This document shows, piece by piece, positions 10,852 to 56,787 of a stretch of 64,000 bases of DNA (the first letter of the stretch is position 1; every line of letters starts with the position of its first letter). The notes under the pieces are model-generated. The model saw only the letters and a list, made by a program, of their open reading frames with translations. It was not told the DNA's origin and made no database searches. Made by a program: the position numbers and the translations under genes. Source of the stretch: a virus (lineage: Duplodnaviria > Caudoviricetes); IMG/VR virus record IMGVR_UViG_3300011435_000017, positions 3,924 through 67,923 of that record; one strand, given 5' to 3'.

Positions 10852-12855
10852 ATGCCTCGTCCTTTCGACCATGTGATGGTCATCGACTTCGAGTCTGCGT
10901 GGGGCCGCGCAGTCAACCTTGGCTTCTCATGCCAAACAATGGAAGAGTACCTCCGCGATCCGCGCTTCAAGGCGTGGGGCCTGTCGTGGTCATTCATCGA
11001 TCTCAAGACCAACAAGCACATGCCCGTGTGGGTGCGCCGGTCTGGGCTCAAGTCATTCTTCGCCAGCCATGACTGGACACGCATCGCAGTAGTCGCGCAG
11101 AACGCGGCGTTCGATGTGTCGATCATGTTCTGGCACTACGGTGTCCACCCCGCCTTCATCCTCGACACGCTGAGCATGGGCCGCGCCCTTCACGGCGTCG
11201 AGGCGGGCAACAGCCTCAAGACACTGGCCGACCGCTATGAGCTGCCGGCCAAGATGCAGGGGCTGGAGTCGAGCGAGAACATCCTCGACGAGCTGCCCTT
11301 CAAGGTGGAGCAGGAGCTTGCGGTGTACTGCAAGCACGACTCGTGGCTGTGCGCCGAGCTGCTGATCCGCATGCTGCCGCACTTCCCTGTCTCCGAGCTG
11401 CAGCTCATCGACATGACGGTGAAGATGTACACCAGACCCGTCCTCGAATTCGACACGCCGATGCTGGAGGTGGCGCTCAAGGACGACGAAGACGCGCTGG
11501 CCAAGGCGCTGGCGCTGGTGAAGCGTACCGAGTCCGAGCTGGCCAGCAACGACACGTTCGCCGACGTGCTGCGCCTGCTGGGTGTCGATCCGCCGATGAA
11601 GCCCTCGCCGTCGGGCAAGGGCAAGGCCGAGGGCCGGATGATCTACGCCTTCGCCAAGAACGACGCCTTGTTCCAGCAGATGCAGAACGGCGACAACGAA
11701 GACGTTGCCCTGCTCTGCGAGGCACGGCTACGGGTGAAGTCCACGCAAGCTCGCACGCGGGCGCAGCGCTTCATCGACATCGGCGGGCGTGGTCCGCTGC
11801 CGGTGCCGCTCAACTACTGGGGCGCCGGGCCCGGCCGCTGGCAGGCATCGAAGGGCAGCAACGTCAACCTGCAGAACATGAAGCGCGGCAGCGCGCTGCG
11901 CAAGTCGATCAAGGCGCCTCCCGGCTACGTGGTGGTCGTCGGCGACCTGATGCAGATCGAGCCGCGGGTGCTGGCCGAGCTGACCGACTACACGGACCTG
12001 CAGAGCATCTTCCGCTCCGGGCAGGATGCGTACGCGCAGTTCGGCGCCGGCATGTTCGGCGTGCCGGGCATGACCAAGGAAAGCCACCCTGTGCTGCGCC
12101 AGAGCGCCAAGAGCGCGCTGCTGGGGGCTGGGTACATGCTGGGCTGGCCGAGCTTCGCCGGGCAGCTTCTTGCCGGCTTCCTTGGCGCTCCACCGAAGCG
12201 CTACACGGTGGCCGACGCCAAGCTCATGGGGATCACGGCGCAGCAGGTGATGAAGTTCACTGCCGACAAGTGGTGCATGGAGCGCGCTGCGCTCGTGCCA
12301 CACGCGTGCTCGGACGACGAGCTGCTGATCCACTGCATCGTGGCCAAGGAGATCATCGACCGCTACCGCGCCACGGCGCAGCCTGTCGTGAAGTTCTGGG
12401 GCTTCCTCAAGCAGATGCTGGAGGAGTGCCTGCACGGTGGTGCGACGCACACCTACAAGTGCCTGACCTTCGAGAAGGGCGCGATCCTCATGCCCAACGG
12501 CATGCGCATCCTGTACCCCGAGCTGACGAAGGGGCGCGACGAGCGCGGCCGCACTGCGTACATGTACCGCAAGGGAAAGAAGATCGAATACATCCACCCC
12601 GGCACGTTGTGCAACAACGTGACACAAGGGCTCGCACGCATCGTGATGAGTGATGGAATGCTTCGCGTCGCGAAGCGGCTGCCCGTGGTCCTCACGGTGC
12701 ACGACGAGCTGGCGGCGCTTGCTCGCCAGCAAGACTCTGCTAAGGCGAAGGTCTGGGTTCGCCAGCAGATGATCGTGGACCCGGTGTACCTGCCGGGCAT
12801 CCCGTTAGACGCCGATGTCGGCGCACACCAACGCTACGGAGAAGCAAAACAATGA
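10852..12855 (+). CDS. polA: Family A DNA polymerase with 3'-5' exonuclease domain
   Basis: ExoI VIDFES, ExoII QNAAFD, ExoIII YCKHD; motif A DLMQIEPR, motif B RQSAKSALLGAGY, motif C VHDE. Confidence 0.96.
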   Translation: MPRPFDHVMVIDFESAWGRAVNLGFSCQTMEEYLRDPRFKAWGLSWSFIDLKTNKHMPVWVRRSGLKSFFASHDWTRIAVVAQNAAFDVSIMFWHYGVHPAFILDTLSMGRALHGVEAGNSLKTLADRYELPAKMQGLESSENILDELPFKVEQELAVYCKHDSWLCAELLIRMLPHFPVSELQLIDMTVKMYTRPVLEFDTPMLEVALKDDEDALAKALALVKRTESELASNDTFADVLRLLGVDPPMKPSPSGKGKAEGRMIYAFAKNDALFQQMQNGDNEDVALLCEARLRVKSTQARTRAQRFIDIGGRGPLPVPLNYWGAGPGRWQASKGSNVNLQNMKRGSALRKSIKAPPGYVVVVGDLMQIEPRVLAELTDYTDLQSIFRSGQDAYAQFGAGMFGVPGMTKESHPVLRQSAKSALLGAGYMLGWPSFAGQLLAGFLGAPPKRYTVADAKLMGITAQQVMKFTADKWCMERAALVPHACSDDELLIHCIVAKEIIDRYRATAQPVVKFWGFLKQMLEECLHGGATHTYKCLTFEKGAILMPNGMRILYPELTKGRDERGRTAYMYRKGKKIEYIHPGTLCNNVTQGLARIVMSDGMLRVAKRLPVVLTVHDELAALARQQDSAKAKVWVRQQMIVDPVYLPGIPLDADVGAHQRYGEAKQ

Positions 12856-13166
12856 CGCATCCAATCCCGAGTTCGTTCCGCTTGCGTCGCCGCAAGTGGC
12901 TCGTCCGCAAGCTGGTCAGCAGCATGAGCGGCACACACGCGGGCCTGTGCGTGCCACCGCCGCCCAAGGAAATCCGCATCTACCAGATCGCCCGCAACAA
13001 GGCGCGCACGCCGCACCAGCAGCAGAAGACGTTCTGGCACGAGGGCACCCACGCCATCCTGATGACGATGGGCCACAAGCTCGCGCACAACGAGCCGTTC
13101 GTCACGCAGTTCTCTCTGCTGCTGGAGGAGCTGATCCGCACCTCGCGATTCGAGGAGAAGGCATGA
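12852..13166 (+). CDS. Small HExxH zincin-like protein
   Basis: TFWHEGTHAIL followed by NEPFV; ATGA-coupled to polA. Confidence 0.65.
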   Translation: MTHPIPSSFRLRRRKWLVRKLVSSMSGTHAGLCVPPPPKEIRIYQIARNKARTPHQQQKTFWHEGTHAILMTMGHKLAHNEPFVTQFSLLLEELIRTSRFEEKA

Positions 13167-13609
13167 GTGTCATTGCATGGGACGGCAGCACGCTCGCTGC
13201 CGACAAGCGCATCGTCAACGGCGGGATCGCCAAGACGTGCACGAAGATATTCCGCCACGAGAAGGAGCTGCTCGGCATCACGGGCGACTGGGACATCGGC
13301 GCCGAGCTGCGGGAGTGGTACAAGGCCGGCGCCGTGCCGGCCGACTTCCCCGACGAGGCGCGCAAGGATGACGGCAAGGCGGGGCTCAGCGTGTTCGACG
13401 GCAAGACCGTTCGCGTCTACAGCGCCGGGCCCTTCCCCTTGATCGTCGAGGACAAGTTCTTCGCAGCCGGCAGCGGCCGCGACTTCGCGTACGCGGCCAT
13501 GCACCTCGGCCGTGGCGCTGTCGAAGCCGTGCGCATCGCCTGCGTGTTCCAGACCGACTGCGGCAGCGGGTACGACGTGATGACGCTGCATGGAGGTGAG
13601 CCGACATGA
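13163..13609 (+). CDS. Ntn-hydrolase (HslV/proteasome beta-like) protein
   Basis: MSVIAWDG-x-LAADKR...KIFR...GITGD...AAGSGRDFAYAAM, the proteasome-fold pattern. Confidence 0.75.
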   Translation: MSVIAWDGSTLAADKRIVNGGIAKTCTKIFRHEKELLGITGDWDIGAELREWYKAGAVPADFPDEARKDDGKAGLSVFDGKTVRVYSAGPFPLIVEDKFFAAGSGRDFAYAAMHLGRGAVEAVRIACVFQTDCGSGYDVMTLHGGEPT

Positions 13610-14262
13610 AGTGGTCCTACTCAATGCTCAAGGACTTCGAGCAGTGCGCCCGCCGCTACAACGAGGTGCGTGTCCTGAAGCACTACCCACGAGAGGAGAC
13701 GGAGCAGCAGCGCTACGGCACGCGTCTCCACAAGGCAGCGGAGGACTTCATCCACGAGAAGGATGAGGTCACGCCCGAGTTCGGCTTCCTGCTCCCGGTG
13801 CTGGAGTCGATCGCGGCCATGCCGGGCACGAAGCTGTGCGAGCACGAGATGGGCGTGCGCATCGACCTGACCCCCTGCAAGTTCGATGCGCCGGACGTGT
13901 GGGGGCGCGGCATCGCCGACCTGATCGTGCTCTCGCCGGACGAGACGAAGGCCCGCTGCTTCGACTACAAGTCCGGCAACGACAAGTACCCGGACACCGA
14001 CCAGCTCATGCTGATGTCGCTGATGATCTTCAAGCACTTTCCCACTGTCCAAAGCGTCAGCGGCGGGCTACTATTTGTGCTGAAGGGCACGCTCGCGAAG
14101 TACAAGATCGAGCGAGAGAAGGCAGCGGAGGCTTGGTGGCGGTGGCGTGAACGCGTCACACGCCTCGAAGCCGCGCACGCCAACGGGGTGTGGAACCCCA
14201 AGAAGTCCGGGCTGTGCAGGAAGTACTGCCCGGTGAAGACGTGCGAGTTCTGCGGGGAGTGA
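13606..14262 (+). CDS. Cas4/RecB-like PD-(D/E)XK exonuclease
   Basis: WSYS...QC...GTRLH...GIADL...DYKSG...QL and C-terminal C-x-x-CPV-x-x-C Fe-S ligands. Confidence 0.9.
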   Translation: MKWSYSMLKDFEQCARRYNEVRVLKHYPREETEQQRYGTRLHKAAEDFIHEKDEVTPEFGFLLPVLESIAAMPGTKLCEHEMGVRIDLTPCKFDAPDVWGRGIADLIVLSPDETKARCFDYKSGNDKYPDTDQLMLMSLMIFKHFPTVQSVSGGLLFVLKGTLAKYKIEREKAAEAWWRWRERVTRLEAAHANGVWNPKKSGLCRKYCPVKTCEFCGE

Positions 14263-14263
14263 C

Positions 14264-14443
14264 ATGAATGAGAAGACCACGTTCGTGATCCAAGGCCCGC
14301 CGCCGGCTGTAGGTGCATGGGTTCTCGGTGGCGACCCCGGCCTCTACTTCCACATGCGCGTGCGCCCGCGCTGGCTCACACGCTGGGTGTGCCACTGGCT
14401 GATGGAGTGGCGCTGGGAAGACTTCGACAACAAGGGAGCGTGA
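14264..14443 (+). CDS. Small Trp-rich hypothetical protein, 59 aa (below the ORF-track cutoff)
   Basis: GGGGAG RBS; reads MNEKTTFVIQG...WLMEWRWEDFDNKGA and fills the gap between two genes exactly. Confidence 0.6.
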   Translation: MNEKTTFVIQGPPPAVGAWVLGGDPGLYFHMRVRPRWLTRWVCHWLMEWRWEDFDNKGA

Positions 14444-14444
14444 C

Positions 14445-14708
14445 ATGGCAACGAAAGCGAAGCTGGCCTATCAAGCGGCCTACAACAAGACGCCCGAGCA
14501 AGTGAAGAGACAGACCAAGCGCCGCGCTGCCGAGCGCGCTGCGGTCAAGTCGGGCGTATCCCCCATCGGCGACGGAAAGGATGTGATCCACAAGACAGCA
14601 CTCGACAACCGCGGCGGCAACGCACCCAGCAACCTCGGCGTCGCACCAGCGGGCAAGAACCGCGCGTGGCGCAAAGGTCAAAAAGGCTACAAGGTTCCCA
14701 ACGAGTAG
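14445..14708 (+). CDS. Minimal, possibly degenerate HNH-fold protein
   Basis: DGKDVIHK...GGN-x-x-SNL-x-V...KNR, compared with the typical D-V-D-H-K...SNL...NR. Confidence 0.65.
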   Translation: MATKAKLAYQAAYNKTPEQVKRQTKRRAAERAAVKSGVSPIGDGKDVIHKTALDNRGGNAPSNLGVAPAGKNRAWRKGQKGYKVPNE

Positions 14709-14717
14709 GAGATACGC

Positions 14718-15071
14718 ATGAGCAAGAAGCAAGACCCGAACACCTTCGACGATCTGCCGAAGGACCCGGTTCAGGAGCAGTACGAAGCCGATGCGCTCGC
14801 CGAGCAGCAGAAGCTCGATGAGGCGGCAGCGGCCGAAGCCGCAGCGAAGCCCGCGCCGCTGCCCGACGCCACGTACGAAGAGCCGGTCGAGGAGAACGAT
14901 GAGGTCGCGCAGCTCCGCAAGGCGCTGAAGGGGCTGCTCGTCAAGGGCGCCTCGTCCAGCTCGGGGCAATGGTCCACGCTCACCGTGCCGGCCGAAGCGG
15001 TCGCAGCGGCACGCGCGCTGGTGGGCCTCGGCAGCACGCCGAGCGACGACAACACGGCGAACCCGGTATGA
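14718..15071 (+). CDS. Acidic, Ala/Pro-rich hypothetical protein
   Basis: AGGAG RBS; ATGA overlap with acb2. Confidence 0.7.
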   Translation: MSKKQDPNTFDDLPKDPVQEQYEADALAEQQKLDEAAAAEAAAKPAPLPDATYEEPVEENDEVAQLRKALKGLLVKGASSSSGQWSTLTVPAEAVAAARALVGLGSTPSDDNTANPV

Positions 15072-15367
15072 GCGACCGCACCGCACCGGGGGAGATGTTT
15101 CTCCAGCCAAAGATCACCGGCTACCGTCAGCTCAGCAAGGACGAGACGGCGCTGATCAACGAGGGCAAGCTGCTCGCCGAGATGGTCGGGCAGTACGTCG
15201 AGAAGCTGCGCCTGCATCCGCAGACGCCGACCGGTGCGGTGCCCGTCGTGCCCGCCTTCGACGAGCTGTGCTCGATCGACCAGCGCTGGGTCAGCATCGG
15301 CGCAACCCAGCTCCAGCAGGGTTTCATGGCCGTGATCCGCGGCATCGCACAACCAACAACCTTCTAG
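15068..15367 (+). CDS. acb2: Anti-CBASS protein Acb2 (cyclic oligonucleotide sponge)
   Basis: QPKITGYRQLSKDETALINEGK...RWVSIGATQLQQGFMAVIRGIAQPTTF matches the Acb2 signature KI-x-GYR-x-LS...RW-x-x-IG-x-T-x-x-Q-x-G-x-MA-x-IR-x-IAQP-x-x-F. Confidence 0.88.
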   Translation: MSDRTAPGEMFLQPKITGYRQLSKDETALINEGKLLAEMVGQYVEKLRLHPQTPTGAVPVVPAFDELCSIDQRWVSIGATQLQQGFMAVIRGIAQPTTF

Positions 15368-15376
15368 AGAAAACCA

Positions 15377-15814
15377 ATGCCAACCGATTTTTCCGACGCG
15401 CTCCGTGAGCTGAAGAGATTCAAACGAATGCACCGCCTCAGTTGGAACGGCCCCAACCAGTTCGTCGAGATGCAGGTGCCTGACGCCAACAGCCTGATGA
15501 CGGTGCCGTACCTGTTCCTGATCAACACCGACGGCGATCGCGTGCCGTGGGTGCCATCGCAGGGCGACCTGATGGCCCATGACTGGGCGATGGCCGACAC
15601 GCCCAAGCACGAGTACCTGCCGCATCAGTACCGCGTGGTCGTCGAGAAGGCCAAGCTCGATGGCGACATCGAACGGCTGCGCGTCTTCATGGTGGGCGTT
15701 CCGTTCAGCAAGCTCTACGCGGCCGAGCAGGACCGGCTGAACTACCAGCTCTCCTGCATGACCGACTTCAGCAAGGTGCTCGGCGAGCGCATCGAAGCCT
15801 TCCACGATCACTGA
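15377..15814 (+). CDS. DUF2829 / Tad2-like domain fused to a crAss001_48-like helical domain
   Basis: N-terminal F-x-x-AL-x-x-LK...R-x-x-WNG...PY...VPW-x-PSQ-x-DL-x-A-x-DW (DUF2829); C-terminal HQYRVVVEK...EQDRL-x-x-Q...M...VLGERI. Confidence 0.8.
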   Translation: MPTDFSDALRELKRFKRMHRLSWNGPNQFVEMQVPDANSLMTVPYLFLINTDGDRVPWVPSQGDLMAHDWAMADTPKHEYLPHQYRVVVEKAKLDGDIERLRVFMVGVPFSKLYAAEQDRLNYQLSCMTDFSKVLGERIEAFHDH

Positions 15815-15815
15815 C

Positions 15816-17372
15816 ATGCAGATCATCGACAACAAGGCGGTGCACCTGCGGGTGCGAGACGCCGCCAAATTCGCCATCCTTCCCCACAAGCACATCGAGC
15901 CGATCGTAGGGGGCGGCTTCGACGTGTACGTGAAGTGGGGCCTCGACGAGGTGCGCGTCCTGCGCAACCTCGGCATCACCGTCCCCTCGCCGATCACGGG
16001 CCGATACAAGTGGCCCGGCCGGTTCAAGCCGATGTCGCACCAGCGCGATACGGCCGACTTCAGCACGATCCATCGCCGCTGCTTCATCTTCAACGATGCA
16101 GGCGTCGGCAAGACGATGAGCGCGCTGTGGGCGGCTGACTACTTGATCACGACGAAGCGCGTGCGGCGCGTGCTCATCGTCTGCCCCGTGTCGATCATGC
16201 ACGCCGCATGGATGAACGACTTCAACCAGAGCATCATCCACCGCAGCGCCGTCGTCGCCCACCACAGCGACGCGAAGCGCCGGGTCGCCGCGGTGCAGGG
16301 TGACTACGAGTTCGTGATCGTCAACTACGATGGGCTGCAGATCGTCGGGCATGCGATCCGCAGCGACGGCCGCTTCGACCTCGTGATCGTCGATGAGGCG
16401 AACGCCTACTCCAACGTGTCCACGCAGCGCTGGAAGGCGCTCAACTCGATCCTCACGCCGGAGACTCTCCTATGGATGATGACCGCCACCCCGGCAGCGC
16501 AATCGCCCGAGCATGCCTATGGGCTCGCGAGACTCGTGAATCCGAGCGGCGTGCCCGGCTACAAGGGAGCGTGGCGGGACAAGGTGATGGTCCGGCTGAC
16601 CCAGTTCAAATGGGCGCCGAAGATCAACGCCAAGGAGCTGGTGCACGAGGCGCTGCAGCCGGCGATCCGCTTCACCAAGGCGCAGTGCCTCGACCTGCCG
16701 CCCGTGATCGTGCAGACGCGCGACGTGGACATGACGCCGCAGCAGTCGAAGTACTACAAGCTGCTGAAGGACCAGATGGTGGCGATGGCTGCCGGCGAGA
16801 AGATCACCGCGGTCAACAAGGGGGTGATGATCAACAAGCTCCTGCAGGTGAGCGCGGGGAGCTGCCGGACTGACGACGGCGACATCATCGAGTTCGACGC
16901 GGCGCCTCGGCTCAACGTGCTGCGCGAGGTGCTGGAGGAGACGAAGAACAAGTTCCTCATCTTCACCATGTACACCGCGTCGATCGTTCGCCTGCACGAG
17001 TACCTGAACAAGATCGGCTACGTCGTGGACATCATCGACGGCAACGTGCCGATGAGCCAGCGCGGCGACATCATCAACCGGTTCCAGCATACGGATGAGA
17101 GTCAGGGCTTGGTGATCCAGCCGAAGGCGGCGGCGCACGGGTTGACCCTGACCCGGGCCGACAACGTGATCTTCTATGGCCCTCTCGACAGCGTGGAGCA
17201 TTACATCCAGTGCATCGCCCGCGCCGACCGGAAGGGACAGGTGGCCGACAAGGTGACGGTCACGCACATCCAGAACAGCCCCGTCGAGCGCGCTGCATTT
17301 CAGCGCTTGGCAGGACGGGTCAGTGAGAGTAATCTGCTCAGCCTCATGTTCGATGAGGTGGTCGCAAAGTAA
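15816..17372 (+). CDS. SNF2-like superfamily 2 helicase
   Basis: Motif I DAGVGKT, motif II DEAN, motif III MTATP, motif V HGLTL, motif VI QCIARADR-x-GQ. Confidence 0.92.
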   Translation: MQIIDNKAVHLRVRDAAKFAILPHKHIEPIVGGGFDVYVKWGLDEVRVLRNLGITVPSPITGRYKWPGRFKPMSHQRDTADFSTIHRRCFIFNDAGVGKTMSALWAADYLITTKRVRRVLIVCPVSIMHAAWMNDFNQSIIHRSAVVAHHSDAKRRVAAVQGDYEFVIVNYDGLQIVGHAIRSDGRFDLVIVDEANAYSNVSTQRWKALNSILTPETLLWMMTATPAAQSPEHAYGLARLVNPSGVPGYKGAWRDKVMVRLTQFKWAPKINAKELVHEALQPAIRFTKAQCLDLPPVIVQTRDVDMTPQQSKYYKLLKDQMVAMAAGEKITAVNKGVMINKLLQVSAGSCRTDDGDIIEFDAAPRLNVLREVLEETKNKFLIFTMYTASIVRLHEYLNKIGYVVDIIDGNVPMSQRGDIINRFQHTDESQGLVIQPKAAAHGLTLTRADNVIFYGPLDSVEHYIQCIARADRKGQVADKVTVTHIQNSPVERAAFQRLAGRVSESNLLSLMFDEVVAK

Positions 17373-17443
17373 AAAGGAGGACCCCCGAGCGCCGAACCTG
17401 CGCTTAATCATTTATAGTTCTACAAACCACAACGAGGAATCGC

Positions 17444-17901: not shown

Positions 17902-18903
17902 TTGTCCAACGTCACTGTCTTTCAACCCTCTCAGCTTCCCGCGCACCTGCGTGGCGTGGCTATCTCCGAAACCGCCAAGGCTCTGGCCGGCGGTGGGCAG
18001 ACGGGCAATCGCCTGTCGATCAAGGGCGGCGTGTTCCGCCTCATCGTGGACGGCAAGGAGATCGCCGCCATCGAAGATCGCCACCTCGACGTGGTGATCG
18101 TTGCCGCAGCGGCCAAGGTCAGCCGCACGTTCTACCTCGCCAAGTACGACGCCGACAACCCGACGGCGCCGGACTGCTGGTCGCAGAACGGCGACATCCC
18201 CGACCCCACCTCGACCGCGAAGCAGGCGGCGACCTGCGCCTCGTGCCCGCAGAACGTCAAGGGCTCCGGCCAAGGCGACAGCCGCGCCTGCCGCTACGGG
18301 CAGCGCGTTGCCGTGGTGCTGGCCAACGATGTCGAGGGCGACGTGATGCAGCTCAGCCTGCCGGCGCTCAGCCTGTTCGGCAAGGCCGAGGGCGAGAACC
18401 GCCCGCTGCAGGAGTACGCCCGCTGGCTCACGGCGCAGGGGATCGACCCGACGATGCTCGTCACCCGGCTGAAGTTCGACACGAAGTCCGAGAGCCCCAA
18501 GCTCTTCTTCAAGGCCATGCGCTGGCTGGAGCAGGACGAGTTCGACATCTGCCGGGCGGCTGGCCAGTCGGCCGACGCCAAGAAGGCGATCACCATGAAC
18601 CCGGCCATGATGGACGGCGTGGGCCCGGCGGCTGCTCCGGTAGACGTTCCGGGGAACCGCCCGGCAGTAGCGGCGCCGGCACCCGCCCCGGCTGCGCCGG
18701 CCGAGGAGGTGGAGCCCCCGGCCCCGCCGCCCCGCCGGACGCGCGCAAAGGCCGCTGCAGCGCCCGCAGCGACCGCGGCGGCACCGGCACCTGCCCCGGC
18801 CGCTGCGGAGCCCGCTGAGCCCGTCCTGAAGGCCAATGGCTCGGCACCCCCGGCGGTGGCGACCGGAGCGCTGGCCGACGTGCTGGACGCTTGGGACGAC
18901 TAA
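17902..18903 (+). CDS. Putative ssDNA-binding / recombination protein
   Basis: TTG start after GGAGAG; RLSIKGGVF...PDCWS...CASCPQN-x-KGS...RAC; long Ala/Pro linker and acidic tip LDAWDD. Confidence 0.65.
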   Translation: MSNVTVFQPSQLPAHLRGVAISETAKALAGGGQTGNRLSIKGGVFRLIVDGKEIAAIEDRHLDVVIVAAAAKVSRTFYLAKYDADNPTAPDCWSQNGDIPDPTSTAKQAATCASCPQNVKGSGQGDSRACRYGQRVAVVLANDVEGDVMQLSLPALSLFGKAEGENRPLQEYARWLTAQGIDPTMLVTRLKFDTKSESPKLFFKAMRWLEQDEFDICRAAGQSADAKKAITMNPAMMDGVGPAAAPVDVPGNRPAVAAPAPAPAAPAEEVEPPAPPPRRTRAKAAAAPAATAAAPAPAPAAAEPAEPVLKANGSAPPAVATGALADVLDAWDD

Positions 18904-19276: not shown

Positions 19277-19380
19277 CCGACACGTCGCTGCCGCTGGACT
19301 GGCAGCGCGTTCTCGTCGATCGCATCGCCGACGCCGTGCCGCCTTTCAAGCCCGAGCAATCGCGCGATGGACGCTCATGA
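19204..19380 (+). CDS. Hypothetical protein (MQSLPYPNTLTDSELVR...)
   Basis: GGAG upstream, but overlaps the HTH gene by about 70 nt. Confidence 0.45.
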   Translation: MQSLPYPNTLTDSELVRIADTVLLTDTSLPLDWQRVLVDRIADAVPPFKPEQSRDGRS

Positions 19381-22213
19381 CTTCCTGACCGCAGTCCTCC
19401 CTCGCACTGGTGTCTACTGTGTCTTCGAGCTGCCGCACAGGCGGCAGGTGTTCGTCGATACGGTCGAGGCGGTGGCAGCCACCGCTGGGGGATTTGCAGC
19501 TAAGAAGCTCGACACGTACTTCGCACTCGCCTCCTTCAAGGAGAAGGGGACACGCGAAGCGGGCAACGCGCAGCTCATGCGCAGCCTGTTCATCGACATC
19601 GACATCGATCCCGACGAGGAGCAAGGGCTCTACACATCGAAGCGCGAAGCGGTCGTCGCGCTGAACACGTTCCTGCAGGAGACGCATCTCGACACGCTGG
19701 GTGCGCCGTGGCTCGTTGACTCCGGTGGCGGCGTGCACGCCTACTGGCCGCTCACCGACGACGTGCCGATCGACGAATGGAAGCCCGTCGCCGAGCGGCT
19801 GAAGCGCGCCGCGTTCGCGTGCAACTTCAAGATCGACATGAAGGTCACGGCCGACGCAGCGCGTGTGCTGCGCATGCCGGGCACGGTCAACTACAAGCAA
19901 CCGGTGCCCCGGCCGGCGGTCCTGAAGAATCGAGGCGCCACGTTCGAGCTTGCCGCGATCGCCAAGCTGCTGCCGGTAGGCGACGGGCCGACCAACGGCC
20001 ACCCGGCGTTGCCGATGCTCAACATCCCGGGCACGCGGCCGATCGTCACGGGCGCCACGCCATCGACGGCCGTGGCGCTGGCCCACCACATCGACTCCAG
20101 CTTCGATCTGCTGCTGGAGCGGTCGCTGGCAGGCACGGGTTGCCAACAGGTGAAGTGGTACTACGACCACGCCGAGCGCTCGAACATGGAGGGCGTGTGG
20201 CGCGCGATGCTGTCGATCGCGAAGTGCACCGACGAGGGCATCGACGCAGGACGCATGCTCAGCGAGTGGCATCCGTACGACGAGGAACGGCTGCAGAAGA
20301 AGTGGAAGGAGCTGAAGGGGCCGTACTCGTGCGGCGCCATCGAGTCGGAGAACCCCGGCGGCTGCGACGGTTGTCCGCACCGCGGCCAGATCACCAACCC
20401 GCTCAAGCTGGGCTGGGCGAGCGTGTCGATGCCGACGCCGGCCACGGCCACCACGCCCGCGCGCATGCCGCCCAAGGGCTTCTCGTTCGACGACGGCTGG
20501 GTGCTGCGCCTCGCTGACCGCAACGATCCGACCTCGCGGCCAATGGTGATCCTGAAGTACCAGTTCTTCCTCGAAGGCATCATGCACGAGGAGAAGAGCC
20601 ACTACGCGCGCTTCTGCAAGATCAAGACGACCAACGGCACCACCACGACCTCACGCATCAAGCTGCCGACAGCAGCAACAGCCTCACGGGAGAAGACGCT
20701 TCCGATACTTGCGGAGCAGCTCGTCACGCCGGAAGCAGGCGCCGGCCAGCACCTCTACAACTACGTGTGCGCTGCGGTGAAGCAGGTGGAGAACGACGGC
20801 AAGGTGCTGCAGGTCCCCGAGCGCTACGGCTGGCAACCCGACGCCGGCTTCGCGTTCAGTGATCGCGTCGTGTATGCGGACCCGAAGAACAACTACGTGT
20901 TCGCGTCCGAGAAGCTGAACAACATGATCGAAGGCATGGAGCCCGCGGGCACCTTCGACAACTGGCAGCGCGTGATGAAGCTGCTGTGCGACAAGGGCTA
21001 CTACGAGGTGGTGACGCTGGGGCTGATCGGCTTCGCGTCGCCGCTCATGTGGTGGGCTGCCGACAACGGCCCCAGCGCGATGGTCTTCCATGCCACCTCG
21101 TCGGCATCCGGTGTCGGCAAGACGTTGGCACTGCAGTTGGCGCGCAGCGTGTGGGGCAACGATCGGCTGGCGACATCACCGAAGACTTCCGAGACGACGA
21201 TCCTGCAGCGGGCGAGCTTCCTTGGCGGCTTGCCGACACTCATCGATGAGGTGACGACCAAGAATCGCGAGTCCGGCGGGACGTGGACGCCGAACTTCTG
21301 CTTCGATTTCTCGGAGGGGAAGCACAAGGTGAAGGGCTTCGCCAGCGGCCACCGCGAGCAAGCCAACGACCGGGGATGGCGCGGGCTGGCCTTCCTCACC
21401 AGCAACAGCCCCGTGCTTGAAGACATGCTCGCCAACCGCAAGGCCAGCGGCTACGGCGAGGTGCAGCGCTTCCTCGAATGGCGCACGGAGACGCGCCTCG
21501 AATTCACCGCTGACGAACGCGCTGTGTTGAAGCTCATCAACGGGAACTACGGGCACGCCGGGCCGCTCTTCGCCGAGTGGCTCGTGAAGAACCGCGACCT
21601 CGCGCGGAAGGTCTTCGACAAGGTGATGAAGGACTGGCACGCCGAGATCGACGCCGAAAGCGAAGAGCGCTTCTGGGTGGCGTCCGGCACGGCCATCATC
21701 ACCGCGGCGACACTGGTGGGGCCGGGCTACGCCAACATCTGCACGATCAACGTCGCGCGTGTGGTGGCGTTCCTGCGGACGCTGGTCGAAGAGTCACGCG
21801 GCATGATCATGGAGAACAGGCGCACCGCACGCGACCTGATCATCAGCTTCGTGAACGAGAACAACGGCCGGTTCGTCATGGTGGGCGCCGCCAGCAAGGT
21901 TGCCGCCCAGCTCGGAGGCACGAGCAACCTGCTCACGCCACTACCTAACACGGCCAAGGGGCCGGTGTTCGGCCGCATCGAGATCGACGTGACCCCCGGC
22001 CGCATCGACCAGTACATCACGGTGGAGGCGCTGAACAAGTTCTGCAGTGAGCGCACCAAGAGCTACAGGACGTTGAAGCAGGAGCTGGCCCAGTACGCGG
22101 CGGTGCGGGAGGTGAAGATGGACTTGTTCAAGGACACGCATGGCCCTCGCAGCCCGACGCGCTGCCTCCACATCTCGTATGCGACTGCGCCCGCCCCCGG
22201 CCCCAAGCCCTGA
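19367..22213 (+). CDS. Primase (RepB-like/AEP) fused to a DUF927-type helicase
   Basis: FIDIDID, VDSGGGVHAYW, RVLRMPGT-x-NYK; Cys cluster CGAI...CDGCPH; Walker A SGVGKT and Walker B LIDE. Confidence 0.9.
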   Translation: MDAHDFLTAVLPRTGVYCVFELPHRRQVFVDTVEAVAATAGGFAAKKLDTYFALASFKEKGTREAGNAQLMRSLFIDIDIDPDEEQGLYTSKREAVVALNTFLQETHLDTLGAPWLVDSGGGVHAYWPLTDDVPIDEWKPVAERLKRAAFACNFKIDMKVTADAARVLRMPGTVNYKQPVPRPAVLKNRGATFELAAIAKLLPVGDGPTNGHPALPMLNIPGTRPIVTGATPSTAVALAHHIDSSFDLLLERSLAGTGCQQVKWYYDHAERSNMEGVWRAMLSIAKCTDEGIDAGRMLSEWHPYDEERLQKKWKELKGPYSCGAIESENPGGCDGCPHRGQITNPLKLGWASVSMPTPATATTPARMPPKGFSFDDGWVLRLADRNDPTSRPMVILKYQFFLEGIMHEEKSHYARFCKIKTTNGTTTTSRIKLPTAATASREKTLPILAEQLVTPEAGAGQHLYNYVCAAVKQVENDGKVLQVPERYGWQPDAGFAFSDRVVYADPKNNYVFASEKLNNMIEGMEPAGTFDNWQRVMKLLCDKGYYEVVTLGLIGFASPLMWWAADNGPSAMVFHATSSASGVGKTLALQLARSVWGNDRLATSPKTSETTILQRASFLGGLPTLIDEVTTKNRESGGTWTPNFCFDFSEGKHKVKGFASGHREQANDRGWRGLAFLTSNSPVLEDMLANRKASGYGEVQRFLEWRTETRLEFTADERAVLKLINGNYGHAGPLFAEWLVKNRDLARKVFDKVMKDWHAEIDAESEERFWVASGTAIITAATLVGPGYANICTINVARVVAFLRTLVEESRGMIMENRRTARDLIISFVNENNGRFVMVGAASKVAAQLGGTSNLLTPLPNTAKGPVFGRIEIDVTPGRIDQYITVEALNKFCSERTKSYRTLKQELAQYAAVREVKMDLFKDTHGPRSPTRCLHISYATAPAPGPKP

Positions 22214-22412
22214 CACGTTCGACTGGAAGTGGGAGACGCGCCGGCCGGGCGCGTTTTTCGTTCCGAGCCTCGACCCCCACACGCTGGTGGCGCAGGGGCT
22301 CTATGCGGCCAAGCAGGCACGCGTCCGGGCCAGCGGACGCGTCTGCATCTACAAGGAAGCGCTCGGCGTGATGTTCACCGTGCGGCCACGATCGACTCAG
22401 CCGCCTTCGTGA
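22140..22412 (+). CDS. Small hypothetical protein after the primase (true start uncertain, probably near 22210)
   Basis: W...FFVPSLD...G-x-R pattern typical of a small gene following such primases; overlaps the convergent giant gene end by about 40 nt. Confidence 0.4.
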   Translation: MALAARRAASTSRMRLRPPPAPSPDTFDWKWETRRPGAFFVPSLDPHTLVAQGLYAAKQARVRASGRVCIYKEALGVMFTVRPRSTQPPS

Positions 22413-25400
22413 AGCGCATCGCCTGCGCGTTGCGCCACTTCGTGATGTAGTCGATGCGCTCGCGCTTCGCGTCGGCTGTCATGCTCGATGCCAGCACCTT
22501 CTCGCGCTCGGCCTTGGCCCGCGCCATGTCGGCACGGAAGCTGTCGTTGAGGCGCTCGGCCTGCAGGACGTTGAGGTTGTCCTCCATGTAGTCCTTCGCG
22601 GCCTTGACGCGGCCCTCCTTGACCAGCTTGTCGTACGTGTTGCCCGCCTGCTCGATCGCGTTGGCCTTCTCGTAGGCGCTCTCGACGGCGCCGCTGGCCA
22701 GCGGGTCGGCGATGAAGCCGCCCAGCAGCGGCGTCTGCGATCCGGTGCGCGTCGGCTGGCTCTTGTCGCTGAGCATCTCGTTGGCCAGCGATGCGGCCGC
22801 GATCGGCATGCCACTCAGGTAGCCGCGCACGAGGTGCTCGATCTTCAGCGGGCTCAGGCCGAACGTCTCGCCCGCCCACTTGGCCAGCTCGGTGGTGTGC
22901 TCGTTGTAGCGCAGCTCCGGCGCGAGCTTCTGCTGTGCATCTGTCTCGATGGCACGGCCCGTGTAGATGTTCTTGTTCATCATCAGCTCAAGCGCCGGCT
23001 TGACCGCCTGTGGCGCTCCGAGGCTGCTGGCGCCCGGGATCGTGTTGAACACCATCTTGCCCAGCGCCTTCATCTCCGCGTCGTCGAACCCGTGCACGGC
23101 CACCTCGGGGATCGCCTTGAAGAGCAAGCCGATCTCGAAGGGGATCGGCACCTTGAGCGTGCCCCACGGCGTCGGCACAAAGAAGTTGTTGATGCGATCG
23201 TGCGCCGTCGCGTTCTTGTACTCCTCGTTCTCCTCCATGCCCACTGCGTAGACCATCGAAAAGAGCGTCAGGCCCACCGCGTTCTTGATGAACTTCTCCC
23301 TGATCTTGAGCTGCTCCTCCATCGTCGCCTTGCCGCGCATCGCCTTGGCCAGCACGTTGAGGCCCTGAATCTGCGCGTTCATGAACGGGATCATCCGCGT
23401 GGCGTGCCGCACCGCGGGGTGGCTGCCGCGCTTGGTGAAGTTCATCATCTCGATCGCCGCCAGCTCGGCCTGCATCTCGGAGCCGGTGGCTTTGAGCGCG
23501 TCCTCATAGACCTGCACGCGCGTCGCCGCGTCGGCCCGCATCGCTGCGCGGTCGGCCATGCTGATGAACCGCGCGATCATGCCCTCGTTGCCGGTGGCGA
23601 GCTGGTGCACGATCACCGAGATGTCGTCAACGTCGCCGCTGAAAATCTGACTCTGCGTCACGCCCTTCTTCAGCAGCGCCTCGCCAGTGCGGGTCGAGCC
23701 CTTCGACTGATCGACGAACTCCTTCACCGACTTCAGCATCGCCGCCACCGGCCCGCGGTTCGCACCGCCAGTGAACGAGGCCGACATCGGATCGCGGATG
23801 AGCTGGCGGATCACGTACGCCGGGTTGCGCGTAACCCACTTGCGCAGCACGTCGCCGAAGTTGCTGGCGAGCTTGCCGAGGCCGGTCATCATCGTGTGCA
23901 CGCCCTCCAGCGACTGCACCAGCATCTCCGACGGGATGCCCTCGAACGGCGTGCCTTCGGAGGTGACGCGCACCCAGCGCTCGCCCGTGTCCTTGTCGTT
24001 GTCGGGATCGGGCTCTTGGTTGAACTTCACGATGTCGGCGCCGGCCGGCGCGTTGCCCCGCTTGATGGCGTTGACACCGGGAGGGCTCATGTTCTGCAGC
24101 CCGTACGCGACTTCCTTGGTGGCAAGGTTCGTGAGCCCCTTGTCCATCAGGAGCATCGTGTTGCGCATGATCGCTTCGTTGAGCGGCAGCAGCTTGCCCT
24201 CGTCGCCCTTGAGCGCCTGCAGGTACGGCTGCTTCCTGATGTCGCCGACACGGATGTGCGTGTTCTCGCCCATCACCAGCTCGGCGACGCCGCTGCCACC
24301 GACGCGATAGAACGGCACGTAGTCGCCGTCCTGCAGCAGCGTGGCTGCCATCTTCTTCGGGATCGCTCCGGTGTCCGCGAGGAACTGCACCATGCCCGCG
24401 TTGTAGTCGTTGTAGACCTTGCGCACGGCTTCGAGCTGCGCCTTGAGCTGCGGGCTGGCGTTGACCTCGGCCAGCATCGCCTCGCCAAGCTGGCGCGTCT
24501 GGTCGGTCGTCGCCCAGCCCAGCTTGTGCCAGCCCTTGTTGGCCGCGCGCTGCGCGACCATGTACGCCTGCGCCTTGGAGAACTTCTCGGCAGACGTGGC
24601 GCCGGGCAGCTTGTCGATCGCCGCGAACACGTCCTTGGCCGACGGACCGTGGCCCGCCTCGACCGTGTGGAAGCCCTTGGCATCCTTCTTCAGCTTCGGC
24701 CCGCCATGCACGAGCACCGCGTGGACCTGTGCCATGCGCGCGTCGGCCTTGCGCACGTAGTACTGAGACTGCTGAAACGCGTGCTTGTCGCCCTTGCTCA
24801 GCGCCTTCAGGATCGGCGCCCGCTGATCGACGGCCAGCATCTCGGCATAGAGGCCGGCGTTGATGTCCGTGACCGCCTGCTTGAGGCCGGTCTTGGTCGC
24901 CTTCGCGTTGAGCTGCGCGCTGAACGCATCCATCGCGTTCGCAGGTGCGCGTGCGGCAGCCGCTGGCGTGGTCGTTCCAATCAGGTCGTTGAGCGCTGCA
25001 GCTTCCGCCGCGGTGAACTTGCGCGCCGGCTGGAACAGGCGCTCGACATCGGCCAGCGCCTTCGCACTGCCGGTCTTCACGCCGAAGAACTGCAGCACCG
25101 CCTGCTTGATGCGGTTCCACAGGCCGGGCTTGCGCGCATCGATCTTGTCGCGCAGCTCCTTGTTCGACAGCACCTCCGAGGCCAGCTCGGCGATGTTCGT
25201 CGTGCCGTACTCGCGCTTGAAGCTGGGGTCGTTCTTGAGCTGCGTGAGCAACCCTTCCAGTCCCTTGAGCGCGTTGCGTTGCTCGCGCGTCAGCGATGAC
25301 GGAGGCGTCACCATCGACTTCATCGTGACGCCGTGACCCAGCTCGTGGATCAGGTTCTCCTCGCTCAGCATGAGCGGATGGATCGTGACGGTGTTCGACT

Positions 25401-28400
25401 CCGCGTCGTAGACGGCAGCGGCCGGCTTGCCGTTGTCGTTCACGTCCGCATCGACCTTGAGCCGAACGCCCTCGGTCAACGTGCGCAGCTTCGCCGCCAG
25501 CTCCCGCACGTACGGCGTCGAGCCGTTCTTGGCCAGCGAGTCGAGCACGCCAGCGAGGTTGCCGTCGTGCACGAGGTTCATGTCCCGCTCGGACAGCGGC
25601 GTGAAGGACGCTTGGTCGTACAGGTTGCTGATGAGGCGTGGCAGCACGCGCCCGCCCTCGCCCTCCATCGTGTCGATGGGCTCTTCGCGTGCCGGCGCAT
25701 CGGTGGCCTTGCGCTCGCGCTTCGCCTTGCGCGCCATCGCTTGGTTCAGCTCCACATAGAGCCGCTTGCGCTCAGCCCCCTGCGGCGCAGCGTTGTACTC
25801 GGCGCGCAGACGATCCACCAGCGCCGCGTCTTCGCTGATCGTCTGCGGCGGTGCCTCCGCGGGTTGTGTCTTCTGCGCTTTCTGTGCCTTCTTCGCCGCC
25901 TTCGCCTCGGCTTTCGGCGGCGTCGTCACCACATCGTCGAGCGCTTTCAGCAGCACCTCGGCCTGACGCTTGTCCGTCGCGGCTGCCTTCTTGTCGCTGG
26001 CGCTTGCGTTCTCGTCGTTGATGACTGCATCAGCCTCGTTGACGATCGCGTCCTGCTTGGCGCGGAACTGTCCGTGCGTCGGCACCGGGTCCATCGCCTG
26101 CACGGCCGTCTTCAGCAGCTCGTAGCGCGCTTGCCGGGCGACGTACTCCCGCTCCTCGGCCACCGCCTGCGCACGCGCGTCCGGCGGCAACACGATCGCT
26201 TCCCCGCGGATGGACTCCTGCCGGCGACGCTCGGCCTTCGCACTGAGGCGCTTCTCGCCGGGGAACAAGAACGACTCCTCCGTGGACTCGCCGCGAGCAG
26301 CACGCGCCTCGGCCTTCGCCTCGTTCGTCTCGGCAGCACGCTGCGCTTGGCGCCGTGCGACAGCAAGCTGCGCCTCCAGCACGCCCTCGGGCGTGTGCGC
26401 CTCGGGCCGGAGCTGCTCCTTGCCGGGCTCCGTCTCGGGCCGGTTCTCACGGATGATCTTGTGCGCTGTCTTGCCTTCGCTCGTCTTGACTTCGCGCAGC
26501 GTCTCGCCGCTGACGGCGTGAGCTTGACGCGACGCCTCTTCGGCTGCGATCCGTTCCTGTGCTGCCGTGACCCCCTCGAAGCGCCGGCCCTTGTAGCCGA
26601 ACGCCGACTTCTCCGCGTTCTGCTCCGCGATGTCCATGCGCGTGAGCCGCTCACCGCTCGTCACCGACGCAGGCTCAACGTCATAGGGCCGGTGCTCGCG
26701 CGCCGCGCGCTTGGGCGCCACGTACTTCCGGTCCGCGCCCAGCGGCTGGTAGTCCGCCGCCTCGGCGATGGACTGCTGCATGTCGAGCACCTTGGACTCG
26801 AACGTGGCCAGCGCATGGCGCCGCTGCAGCGCGTGCATCTCGGGCACCCCTGTCAGCGCCAACGGCGCCAGCGGCGTCTGCATGCGGGCGAGCTTCTTGT
26901 TGCGCGCCTCGGGCATCGCCAACGGCACCCGCTTGCTGTCGAGGTACTTGATGCGTGCCTCGGTGCCAGCCATCCAGCGCAGCCGCTTGGCGCGCTCGTC
27001 GGCGCTCTCGGTTTCGCTGACCGCTGCCTGCCTTTTCGCCAGCGCTTCTGTCGCTGCCACGTACGCATCATTGAGCCGCTTCGGCAGCACGCCCTTCGGG
27101 TGCTGAGCACGCAGCGCACGCATCTCTGCCAAGACCTCGCTGATCTCGGTGTCCAGCTCGCCTTGGCGCGAGGGGAACGCGTTCTTCTTGTGCAGCCCGG
27201 CCACGCGATCGACGATCGTCTGCAGCTCCGTCTTGTCAATGCCGCGCACATGCATCGCCTCTGCGATGGCATCCTGCACGCCCTCGGCCTGCATCTCGAC
27301 GGACATCGTGACGCCCGCCGGCCGCGACTGCGCCGTGATGCGCTCGGCCTGCACGTTGGGCGACGAGACGGCAAGCTGCTTCTGCTTGGCCGCGAGCGCG
27401 TCGCGCTCCTCGCGCTCTGCCATGCGCTTGGCCTTGGCGTTCTTCGCTGCCTGCTCGCGAGCACTCGACACCGTGGGGAACTTCGCCTCGCCCATCGTGC
27501 CGACTTCGCCGGACTTGGACTTCTCGATCGCAGCGGCCTTCGCTTCACGCTCGGCCTTCGCCTCGGCGCCGGCATCGAGCCGCGCCTGCAGCAGCTTGTT
27601 GGGGATCGTCGCGAGTTTCTTCTCGATCTTGGTCAGGTCCTTCCTGAGCGTGGCGCCCTCGTCTGCCAGCGCCGTCAGCGCCGCCGCCGCGTCCCGGTCG
27701 GTCAGCAGCTTGATCTCGTGCTTGTAGGCATCCACGCGGTCGGCGTGGCGCCGGGCCGTGCGCCCGGCCTGCGCCGCACGCATCCGCAGGTCGTACCCGC
27801 TGCCCTCCTCGGCTGCCTCCGCTTCATGCGCCTCCTTGATGAGCGTGCGCGCGGCAGTCGAGGCGTCCTCGGCGGCGACCGTGGCCTGCAGCAGCTTGGG
27901 CCGCAGCGCCGCGATCATGCTCTGGCGGTCCATCTCCCGGTCGTTCAGCCGCTCACCGAGCTTGTGGAGCCGGCGTGCTGCGTCGCGCGCAGCCGCAAGC
28001 CGCTGGTTCAGGCTCGTGGCGTGGAACGCGAGCACGCGGCCCTCGAACTGCACCTGCTTGACGCGCTGCACCGCGGTCGCCGGCTCGGTGAACAGCGACG
28101 CCTGCTCGTCGCTCTCGTCCAGCCCCGTGACGGCCGGCGTCTCCTTCTCCAGCTCCAGCCGCTGCGGCTTCACCCGCTTGGCGGCGGGCAGATCGCCCAC
28201 TGCCCGCTCGCCCTTCTTGTCCCCCTCCTCGATCTCGCCCTCCGTCCGGCGATCGCGGAGTTCCACCCGGCCCTTGCGGACCGAGGCTTCAGCGGGGTAG
28301 ACGCCGAATCCCGTTGGCGGGGCGGTCTTGCCGACCGGGCGCCCTCCGATGTACGTCTCCGTGGGAGCCGTCTCACGGGCCGGGGCTTCTGCCGTCGGCG

Positions 28401-31371: not shown

Positions 31372-31379
31372 GTGCGTTC

Positions 31380-55215: not shown

Positions 55216-56787
55216 TCAGTAGTATGCGCGACGTGGCCGGCGGCGGGCGATTTCGTCCTCCTCCGGGTCTGTCTGCACGTCGGTCTTCAGCGACAGGAAG
55301 CCGCCGCGCCGGAAGCGATCGAGGGCCAGTTGAACGCAGTCCACAAAGTCATCGTGCTCGCCGTTGGGGTAGTCCGCGCACTCATCGACGACCTCGTATG
55401 CCCAGCGCCGGTCGGGGTGCCACACGACCCCGCCCTGCAGGACTGGAGCTACGGCGTTGACCCGCGCTCTCTTGTCCTTGGAGACGCCAACCTTGCCACG
55501 GCTTGGGGATACCTCGGCTATTAGCAGCCCGGATTGACGGAGTTCTTGGATCAAGGGGGCACCCGCGGCCTTCTTCTCGATGATCACGTCGTCGGGCTCC
55601 CAGTCCTTGTACAACTGGAACGCCTTCTCCTTGAGCTGCGGGAACTCCCAGCGGCCGCGCAACGCGTTCAACATGATGATGTGGTGCTTCTCGTCGTCCT
55701 CGTCGTACCACACGCCCCATGTGATGCACGCCGAGTAGTCATTGTGGCTCTTCGTGTCGTGCGCGGTGTCCCAGACTTGCAGGATGTACTCGCAGGTCGG
55801 TGGCGTGTCCTTCGGCCAAACACGCCACCATTCCCGCTTCAGGAGCTGGCCCGCGGCCGATGAGGGCTCCTGCTGGTACTGCGCGGCCCAGTACTGGGGC
55901 AGCATGCCGGCCTGCTTCGCTTCGAGCTGCTCCAGCGGCCACTGCTCGGGCCACAGCGACTTGCCGCTGGGCATGATCGCCGGGAAGCGCACCTCGTTCC
56001 AAGGGATCGAGGAGGGGTTCTCCAAGGCCCATGCAAGCGCTCGGCCGATCGGGTCCTTCTTCCCCCACCGCGTGCCGATCTGGATGATCCTGCCGCCCGG
56101 CATGAGGCGCTGGAGCGGGCCCACCTGCATGTAGGTCCACGCCGTCTCGAAGGCAACGTCGGGGTTGGCCAGCACCGCCTGCTCGGATACGAGGTCATCG
56201 GCGAGGAGCAGGTGCGCGCCGTAGCCGGCAACCGAGCCACCGACGCCAACCGCGAGGTACTTGCCGCCGACAGTGGTCGTCCAGTCATCGGCTGCCGACT
56301 TGTCCTTCGAGACGATCGTTCCGGGGAAGATCGCTTGGTAGTCCGGCGTCGCCAGCATGTTGCGAACGAGGCGCCCGAACGACGAGGAGAGGTCCGCGGT
56401 GTGCGTGACCATGATGATGTGGTGCTCGGGGTGGTGCCCGAGATACCACGCCACGAACAGGTAGGCGATCGTGACGGATTTGCCGAATCGAGGCGGGAGG
56501 GACACCGTGAGGCGCAGCTCCAGACCGATGCAGACGTTGTGCAGCAGCGGCTCAAGGAACCGGTGATGCGGTCCCTCCTTGAAGCCCGGGTACATGCGGG
56601 CGCAGAAGTGGAGAAAAGACACCCTGCACCGTTCGAGCATCAAGCTCTCTTCGAGTGCAGTTAAATCGGCCATGAGCTGCTCGGCGTCCTTCCTCGGAAG
56701 GGTCGGCAGCGTCTCCTCGATGCGCTCGATCTCCTCTGGCGCCAGCGGCGACAAGGCTGCGGCGTCAGCGTACGGGAGGAGATTCAT
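55216..56787 (-). CDS. terL: Terminase large subunit
   Basis: Walker A-like PPRFGKS, GYGAHLLLADDL, IQIGTRW, QYQQEP, and RNase H-like nuclease motifs WDTA...NDYSA and HDDFVD. Confidence 0.95.
   Translation of the reverse strand: MNLLPYADAAALSPLAPEEIERIEETLPTLPRKDAEQLMADLTALEESLMLERCRVSFLHFCARMYPGFKEGPHHRFLEPLLHNVCIGLELRLTVSLPPRFGKSVTIAYLFVAWYLGHHPEHHIIMVTHTADLSSSFGRLVRNMLATPDYQAIFPGTIVSKDKSAADDWTTTVGGKYLAVGVGGSVAGYGAHLLLADDLVSEQAVLANPDVAFETAWTYMQVGPLQRLMPGGRIIQIGTRWGKKDPIGRALAWALENPSSIPWNEVRFPAIMPSGKSLWPEQWPLEQLEAKQAGMLPQYWAAQYQQEPSSAAGQLLKREWWRVWPKDTPPTCEYILQVWDTAHDTKSHNDYSACITWGVWYDEDDEKHHIIMLNALRGRWEFPQLKEKAFQLYKDWEPDDVIIEKKAAGAPLIQELRQSGLLIAEVSPSRGKVGVSKDKRARVNAVAPVLQGGVVWHPDRRWAYEVVDECADYPNGEHDDFVDCVQLALDRFRRGGFLSLKTDVQTDPEEDEIARRRPRRAYY

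Follow-up and report, generated by a model that had tools for sequence, protein, structure and literature searches.

A probable two-gene, three-module sponge cassette, Acb2 followed by a Tad2-Sequestin fusion, in the replication block of an uncultured high-GC phage

Phage-encoded sponges of the Acb2, Tad2 and Sequestin families act against nucleotide-signalling immunity. All three families have been experimentally characterised, and both Tad2-Sequestin fusions and clusters of phage anti-signalling genes have already been published. Here, a stretch of 64,000 nucleotides (nt) from an uncultured phage (positions 3,924 to 67,923 of the IMG/VR virus record IMGVR_UViG_3300011435_000017; hereafter the window) was found to carry an Acb2-family gene (open reading frame 1, ORF1) directly followed by a gene that fuses a Tad2-like domain to a Sequestin domain (ORF2). 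The two genes probably form a sponge cassette of three modules that would act against nucleotide-signalling immunity in the manner described for their families.

The closest solved relatives of ORF1 are the Acb2 proteins of the PaMx33/JBD67 type (PDB 8h2j, 8ixz-8iy2), which belong to the helical-hairpin family PF24729 and are dual binders of cyclic di- and trinucleotides; the solved homologue is a hexamer. Mutagenesis of PaMx33 Acb2 showed that cyclic dinucleotides are not bound without Y11 and K26, nor cyclic trinucleotides without R67 and T74, and the latter two residues, which differ among homologues, predict binding of cyclic triadenylate (cA3) (PMC10312549). For Tad2, the SPO1 protein (PDB 8sme, 8smf, 8smg, 8wje) is the closest described system. 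Its main contacts to glycocyclic ADP-ribose (gcADPR) are W25, N26, W73 and D79, with further contacts by T78, I63 and T65 and by the water-coordinating D67, H71 and S76 (bioRxiv 10.1101/2023.05.01.538930). The ligand residues of HgmTad2 are W21, N22, S90, T92 and D93, and in the HgmTad2/SptTad2 subtype a long insertion builds a cyclic-dinucleotide pocket.

Sequestin was described in 2025. The describing preprint (bioRxiv 10.1101/2025.07.12.664507) singles out PF21825 as the Pfam partner that occurs most frequently in fusions with Tad2 (60 instances) and Acb4 (91), finds Sequestin in 639 phage genomes out of about 25,000, and reports that 10 of 13 tested members block type I Thoeris. According to the same source, one purified Sequestin bound 3' cyclic ADP-ribose (3'cADPR) and released it intact, the pocket is formed by R7, E11, Q45 and R59 in SequestinB (R8, E12, Q47 and R61 in SequestinA), and mutation of the pocket E, Q or R abolishes activity. 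Moreover, a 2026 preprint on Pseudomonas N4-like phages reported a Sequestin crystal structure, which is an antiparallel dimer.

The cassette and its parts are arranged in the window as follows:

15068-15367, plus strand: ORF1, Acb2-family sponge gene, 99 amino acids (aa), matching PF24729 and the solved PaMx33 Acb2
15377-15814, plus strand: ORF2, Tad2-Sequestin fusion gene, 145 aa, matching PF11195 and PF21825
15386-15589, plus strand: Tad2-like (DUF2829) domain, ORF2 residues 4-71, by PF11195 and Foldseek
15620-15796, plus strand: Sequestin (PF21825) domain, a helical hairpin, ORF2 residues 82-140
15368-15610, plus strand: segment exchanged between relatives, comprising the spacer and the ORF2 N-terminal module, from DNA alignment A3

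ORF1 matched the Pfam family PF24729 (Acb2_Tad1_hairpin) with an E-value (E) of 4.3e-13 and 49.7 bits (curated cut-off 27), and its residues 14-99 matched the solved PaMx33 Acb2 (PDB 8h2j, 8ixz) in phmmer at E 9e-9. Its start codon and the stop of the gene before it share the ATGA at 15068-15071; in a relative, L008, the only start codon available is a GTG placed in the same overlap, and therefore 15068 is favoured over the internal ATG at 15095. In the HMMER alignment, the pocket residues Y11, K26, R67 and T74 of PaMx33 Acb2 correspond to Y19, K34, R73 and T80 of ORF1, and the hydrophobic adenine contacts L14 and P90 to L22 and P96; all six residues are the same in every one of 45 aligned relatives. 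The family is large, with 1,696 ORF1 homologues retrieved by a word-indexed search. ORF1 is of the same length class as the PaMx33/JBD67 proteins, carries both the dinucleotide Y and K and the trinucleotide R and T, and is without the extra terminal beta-strands of the 3'cADPR-binding Acb2 variant; on these grounds it resembles the dual binders PaMx33 and JBD67 Acb2. It is nevertheless divergent from PaMx33 Acb2, with small indels in the inter-helix loop and an N-terminus eight residues longer, and comes from a phage unrelated to PaMx33 and JBD67; a hexamer and ligand binding, known for the solved homologue, are predicted for ORF1.

Residues 4-71 of ORF2 matched PF11195 (Tad2-like) at E 3e-19 and 69.8 bits (cut-off 25), and the protein also matched the solved SPO1 Tad2, MoTad2 and HgmTad2 by sequence (E 2e-6 to 1e-4). 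An AlphaFold2 model built from a 75-sequence alignment reached a mean predicted local distance difference test score (pLDDT) of 94, and replaced a single-sequence run with a pLDDT of only 52. The model consists of an N-terminal helix and a small beta-sheet, followed by two long helices (82-106 and 115-144). In Foldseek, its first half matched SPO1 Tad2 (8wje, 8smf; for 8wje_B, E 1.5e-7, target template modelling (TM) score 0.83, root-mean-square deviation 2.3 Å), whose fold of an N-terminal helix and an antiparallel beta-sheet is present in the model. In the sequence alignment the four main contacts of SPO1 Tad2 are all kept as W23, N24, W58 and D64, and D67 and S76 are kept as D52 and S61; W21, N22 and D93 of HgmTad2 likewise fall on W23, N24 and D64. 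Among the 75 aligned sequences W23 is invariant, and N24, W58, S61 and D64 are conserved in at least 90%. The beta2-beta3 insertion is about 11 residues long in ORF2 versus 24 in SPO1 Tad2 and 41 in HgmTad2, and therefore no cyclic-dinucleotide pocket is expected in ORF2.

The second half of ORF2 is a Sequestin domain. Residues 82-140 matched PF21825 at E 3.7e-11 and 43.2 bits, and the isolated C-terminal 70 aa scored 45.7 bits (cut-off 24.8); the family is called "crAss001_48" in the local Pfam copy and Sequestin in newer labels on public contigs. Both Sequestin helices were modelled at pLDDT above 90, and the hairpin matched stand-alone phage proteins of 65-67 aa in BFVD with TM scores of 0.90-0.96; among the PDB copy entries searched with the ORF2 model there was no solved Sequestin chain. 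R86, E90, Q124 and R138 of ORF2 show the same spacing (+4, +38, +52) as the SequestinB pocket, and are kept in 17, 18, 18 and 18, respectively, of 18 Tad2-Sequestin fusion homologues. A kinship of this hairpin with the Acb2/Tad1 hairpin was also considered and dropped, as BLASTP found nothing and hhalign gave probabilities of 0.6-2%, so that no relationship was detected. An NCBIfam search returned no match for ORF1, ORF2, module X (see below) or the small proteins encoded upstream.

These results bear on an earlier note on this DNA, which had read the pair as a compact two-gene sponge cassette from an Acb2 signature immediately followed by a DUF2829 signature. Both ORFs were recovered on the plus strand where the signatures had been placed, with the quoted motifs present and Pfam scores above the cut-offs, and the comparisons that it had proposed with solved ligand-contact residues agreed with its family assignments, by alignment for Acb2 (Y19, K34, R73 and T80 kept) and by AlphaFold2, Foldseek and alignment for Tad2 (SPO1 fold and W/N/W/D kept). 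The two-gene cassette thus stands by family, Tad2 fold and contact residues; the note had missed its third module, the Sequestin at residues 82-140 of ORF2, and its hint that this Tad2 homologue might bind cyclic dinucleotides finds no support, given the short insertion. The novelty implied by the note was also overrated, given the fusions and gene clusters already in print.

The two genes are packed as in an operon. ORF2 begins 9 nt past the end of ORF1, the ATG of the following helicase gene (15816) lies one base after the ORF2 stop, and the intergenic gaps around the pair are 0-9 nt. The third-position G+C bias (0.82 for the longer ORF holding ORF1 and 0.88 for ORF2) is typical of the real genes of this genome. 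A simple scan of 12800-17386 found neither a promoter-like nor a terminator-like site on the plus strand, and the cassette is therefore likely co-transcribed with the replication genes; a terminator-like hairpin is present at 17387-17405, 3' of the helicase gene.

Among related loci, L012 keeps the same Acb2/Tad2-Sequestin pair, with Acb2 98% identical. The ratio of nonsynonymous to synonymous differences per site (pN/pS) against L012 is 0.08 for ORF1 and 0.13 for ORF2, so the differences are mostly synonymous, and the values for ORF1 against its relatives range from 0.08 to 0.18. In the next-closest relatives (L004, L008, L009 and L013; Acb2 81-92% identical), the gene after Acb2 retains a closely similar Sequestin, preceded by an N-terminal module that is unrelated to Tad2 and has no Pfam match. 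DNA alignment A3 shows high identity through Acb2 and none alignable over about 15368-15610; identity returns at GAGTACCTGCCGCA, which encodes the E79-Y80-L81-P82-H83 linker, and continues through Sequestin into the helicase gene. One domain has been cleanly exchanged inside a gene, and the domain fused to it and the genes on either side have kept their positions. Between the Tad2-fused Sequestin (15611-15811) and the X-fused Sequestin of L004, the pN/pS is 0.65 over about 66 codons, with the pocket residues kept; compared with the 0.08-0.18 of Acb2, this value may be a sign that the domain has adapted to a different partner, although it is only suggestive.

The replacing module, here termed module X, is about 75 aa long and occupies the Tad2 slot in the closest relatives, outside the window (L008:605-830, L004:4395-4620, and L013); it is also present in Klebsiella phage KP8 (L003:3252-3490). 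Its consensus is ..GTK..KA.PMTR.EYN..RGW..P..ED..DEGYLVEY.DGGK.NH...GYISWSPK.VFE..Y. A total of 2,134 homologues of 78-249 aa were detected, and among the best 120 of them all but about 10 carry PF11195, PF21825, PF13876, or PF11195 together with PF21825; the remaining ones have no Pfam domain, and the shortest of these are 94-104 aa long. Module X itself gave no Pfam match (E up to 10), no NCBIfam match and no PDB match, and its only Atlas hits were unnamed viral clusters, with no structure among them. The possibility that X is a divergent Acb4 (PF13876) was rejected: besides the empty Pfam search, no BLASTP similarity was found to the KP8 PF13876 protein or to Ab09 gp59, and P0330 has X plus a PF13876 annotation in one protein. 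X next to PF13876 in a single protein, together with the lack of similarity to PF13876 proteins, therefore marks X as a distinct domain. We tentatively suggest that the slot before Sequestin undergoes ongoing whole-domain exchange. By the guilt-by-fusion reasoning that led to Sequestin, X might represent another, undescribed family of sponges; alternatively, it could serve its various partners as a common module for oligomerisation or as an adaptor.

The combination of these modules recurs elsewhere. About 17 of the best 150 representative ORF2 homologues span both domains, and a Tad2-Sequestin fusion is present in Cronobacter phage JK004. In Klebsiella phage KP8, Tad2 and Sequestin are adjacent separate genes just before the virion RNA polymerase gene and beside an Acb4 gene. 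The KP8 row (L003 2675-3958) runs from the Acb4 gene (PF13876) through a 51-aa ORF and an X-Tad2 fusion to a stand-alone Sequestin; the existing annotations of these genes go no further than hypothetical or DUF2829. Among 80 Acb2-bearing IMG/VR loci searched with home-made hidden Markov models, 10 have Tad2 and/or Sequestin within 2.5 kb, mostly directly adjacent, in the orders Tad2 then Acb2, Acb2 then Sequestin, or Acb2 then X-Sequestin; the surveyed loci are related to one another, and these counts are therefore not independent.

Two published arrangements are closest to the one described here. The Tad2-PF21825 fusion of a Comamonas sp. 26 mobile element, published as a model by Tal et al. 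(bioRxiv 10.1101/2025.07.12.664507, Fig. 1B), has the same order as ORF2, PF11195 then PF21825; ORF2 differs from it in being a short-insertion variant without an extra N-terminal domain and in lying directly after an Acb2 gene. By comparison with SPO1 Tad2, which stands alone, ORF2 shares the fold and the residues given above but carries the C-terminal Sequestin. In the N4-like phage hot spot (bioRxiv 10.64898/2026.06.04.730250), Sequestin is likewise fused to another sponge, and a cluster of anti-signalling genes sits amid replication genes, as here; however, the partner in that protein (gp59) is Acb4 instead of Tad2, and the hot spot lies between the primase and the virion RNA polymerase, whereas the present locus lies between a nuclease and an SNF2 helicase. 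In this phage, which is not N4-like, only about 160 nt separate the end of the primase gene from the large gene that follows.

In the proposed mechanism, ORF1 would form a homo-oligomer, as the hexameric solved homologue leads us to infer, and would sequester the cyclic dinucleotides of cyclic-oligonucleotide-based antiphage signalling systems (CBASS) in its Y19/K34 pockets and cyclic trinucleotides in its R73/T80 pockets. In ORF2, the Tad2 domain would offer a gcADPR-type pocket built from W23, N24, W58 and D64, and the Sequestin hairpin a pocket built from R86, E90, Q124 and R138. With both modules on one chain, ORF2 would sequester the ADP-ribose-derived Thoeris signals made by Toll/interleukin-1 receptor (TIR) proteins, 3'cADPR above all, and two of the three modules are accordingly expected to act on Thoeris signals. 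The host systems that would be blocked are named here by analogy with the characterised members of each family.

Several points weigh against this reading. Sequence does not reveal ligand specificity inside sponge families: a published screen of 84 homologues of Acb2, Tad1 and Tad2 included 19 that failed to block any of seven systems, some Acb2 homologues take 3'cADPR instead of cyclic GMP-AMP (cGAMP), and some Tad2 homologues take histidine-ADP-ribose (His-ADPR), N7-cADPR or cyclic UMP (cUMP). Of the 13 tested Sequestins, 3 were inactive (bioRxiv 10.1101/2025.07.12.664507), and the residue mapping for the ORF2 Sequestin comes from spacing, published numbers and primer-encoded N-termini, not from structural superposition. 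In the Tad2 domain two secondary contacts are changed, as the adenine-bonding threonine (SPO1 T78, HgmTad2 T92) is Gly63 and the water-coordinating H71 of SPO1 is Val56; these are not family-defining residues, and the changes may represent a shift in specificity. In addition, the beta2-beta3 insertion holds the dimer-packing helix of SPO1 Tad2, and with this insertion shortened in ORF2 a tetramer is therefore not assured.

Some of these points might also be taken to mean that the folds and the sponge mechanism hold and the ligands are others, with Acb2 binding 3'cADPR and Tad2 binding His-ADPR, N7-cADPR or cUMP, so that different systems such as Thoeris types II or IV, or Pycsar, would be covered. 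Specificity shifts are documented in both families, the changes to Gly63 and Val56 sit in the Tad2 pocket, and one protein would hardly need two modules that bind one and the same ligand, which makes differing specificities sensible. Nevertheless, the 3'cADPR-binding Acb2 variant relies on additional beta-strands at both termini and on other residues, while ORF1 retains Y and K of the cGAMP type and R and T of the cA3 type, all four invariant, and the core gcADPR contacts of Tad2 are retained; such a change of ligands is regarded as unlikely, though it is the strongest of the alternatives. The truncated insertion and the two changed contacts, together with the replacement of Tad2 by an unrelated module in close relatives, could also suggest that the Tad2-like domain no longer binds a ligand and acts only as a scaffold through which the Sequestin hairpin oligomerises, or vice versa. 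Yet W23, N24, W58, S61 and D64 are retained and vary little or not at all among the 75 relatives, and the whole gene differs from L012 mostly by synonymous changes at the low pN/pS given above, which leaves this explanation with very little probability. Finally, ORF2 might be an anti-CRISPR, as was first claimed for the DUF2829 protein AcrIIA7, which is among the PDB matches of ORF2, or both genes might serve replication, given that they lie inside the replication block. This is highly improbable, since the anti-Cas9 activity of AcrIIA7/HgmTad2 was not reproducible (bioRxiv 10.1101/2023.11.15.567273) and all three modules come from families with demonstrated sponge activity, with their pocket residues conserved. 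A sponge cassette of Acb2 and Tad2-Sequestin is therefore retained as the probable function of the two genes.

The source record is a 67.9-kb IMG/VR virus rated complete, with a G+C content of 65%. The genes and products considered around the pair are the following:

10852-12855: family-A DNA polymerase, replication block
13163-13609: HslV-like peptidase (phrog_1040, E 1e-29), between the DNA polymerase and the PD-(D/E)XK nuclease
13606-14262: PD-(D/E)XK nuclease, replication block
14445-14708: strongly basic protein of 87 aa, isoelectric point (pI) 10.6, phrog_4590 (function unknown), at the same position in relatives
14718-15071: acidic protein of 117 aa, pI 4.2, with 21 D+E versus 10 K+R and no family match
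15816-17372, plus strand: SNF2 helicase, directly after ORF2
17902-18903: protein of 333 aa, phrog_27714 (function unknown), with an Ala/Pro-rich C-terminal region and an acidic ...DAWDD tail
19367-22213: DUF927 primase, after the SNF2 helicase and further genes
22375-31407, minus strand: ORF of 3,010 aa, with only a C-terminal LPD38 domain and a match to an unnamed PHROG
55216-56787, minus strand: large terminase (TerL), nearest to those of Pelagibacter phages HTVC023P and HTVC027P and of Planktothrix and Synechococcus phages, at about 40% identity

The polymerase, peptidase and nuclease genes before the pair and the SNF2 helicase gene directly after it bear out the earlier claim that the pair is embedded in the replication block, upstream of the helicase. 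Three small ORFs without known function separate the nuclease from ORF1. The acidic protein, whose stop overlaps the Acb2 start, precedes Acb2 in relatives too (104 aa in L004 and L009, a 142-aa ORF in L012); one could speculate that it too serves counter-defence, for instance as a DNA mimic. The HslV-family peptidase-like gene is odd company for a replication block, and the ...DAWDD tail of the 333-aa protein recalls the tails of single-strand-binding proteins.

A blastn search with 14400-17400 against 50,697 phage records returned zero matches, and the phage therefore has no close cultured relative; by TerL comparison, no cultured genus of the phage collection takes it in. An N4-like label, prompted by the 3,010-aa ORF on the minus strand, was dropped, because that ORF matches only LPD38 and the unnamed PHROG and no virion RNA polymerase, and because TerL is likewise nearest to Pelagibacter and Planktothrix phages.

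Within 747 bases, two genes with three modules may together cover the di- and trinucleotides of CBASS and the ADP-ribose signals of Thoeris, and the pair is a natural example of a phage stacking sponges against signalling immunity. The family assignments leave existing knowledge unchanged; the known cases gain an uncultured high-GC phage lineage and a new position, in the replication block before an SNF2 helicase. Module X, which keeps the company of Tad2, Sequestin and Acb4, is a candidate further anti-signalling family and a more useful lead than the family assignments themselves.

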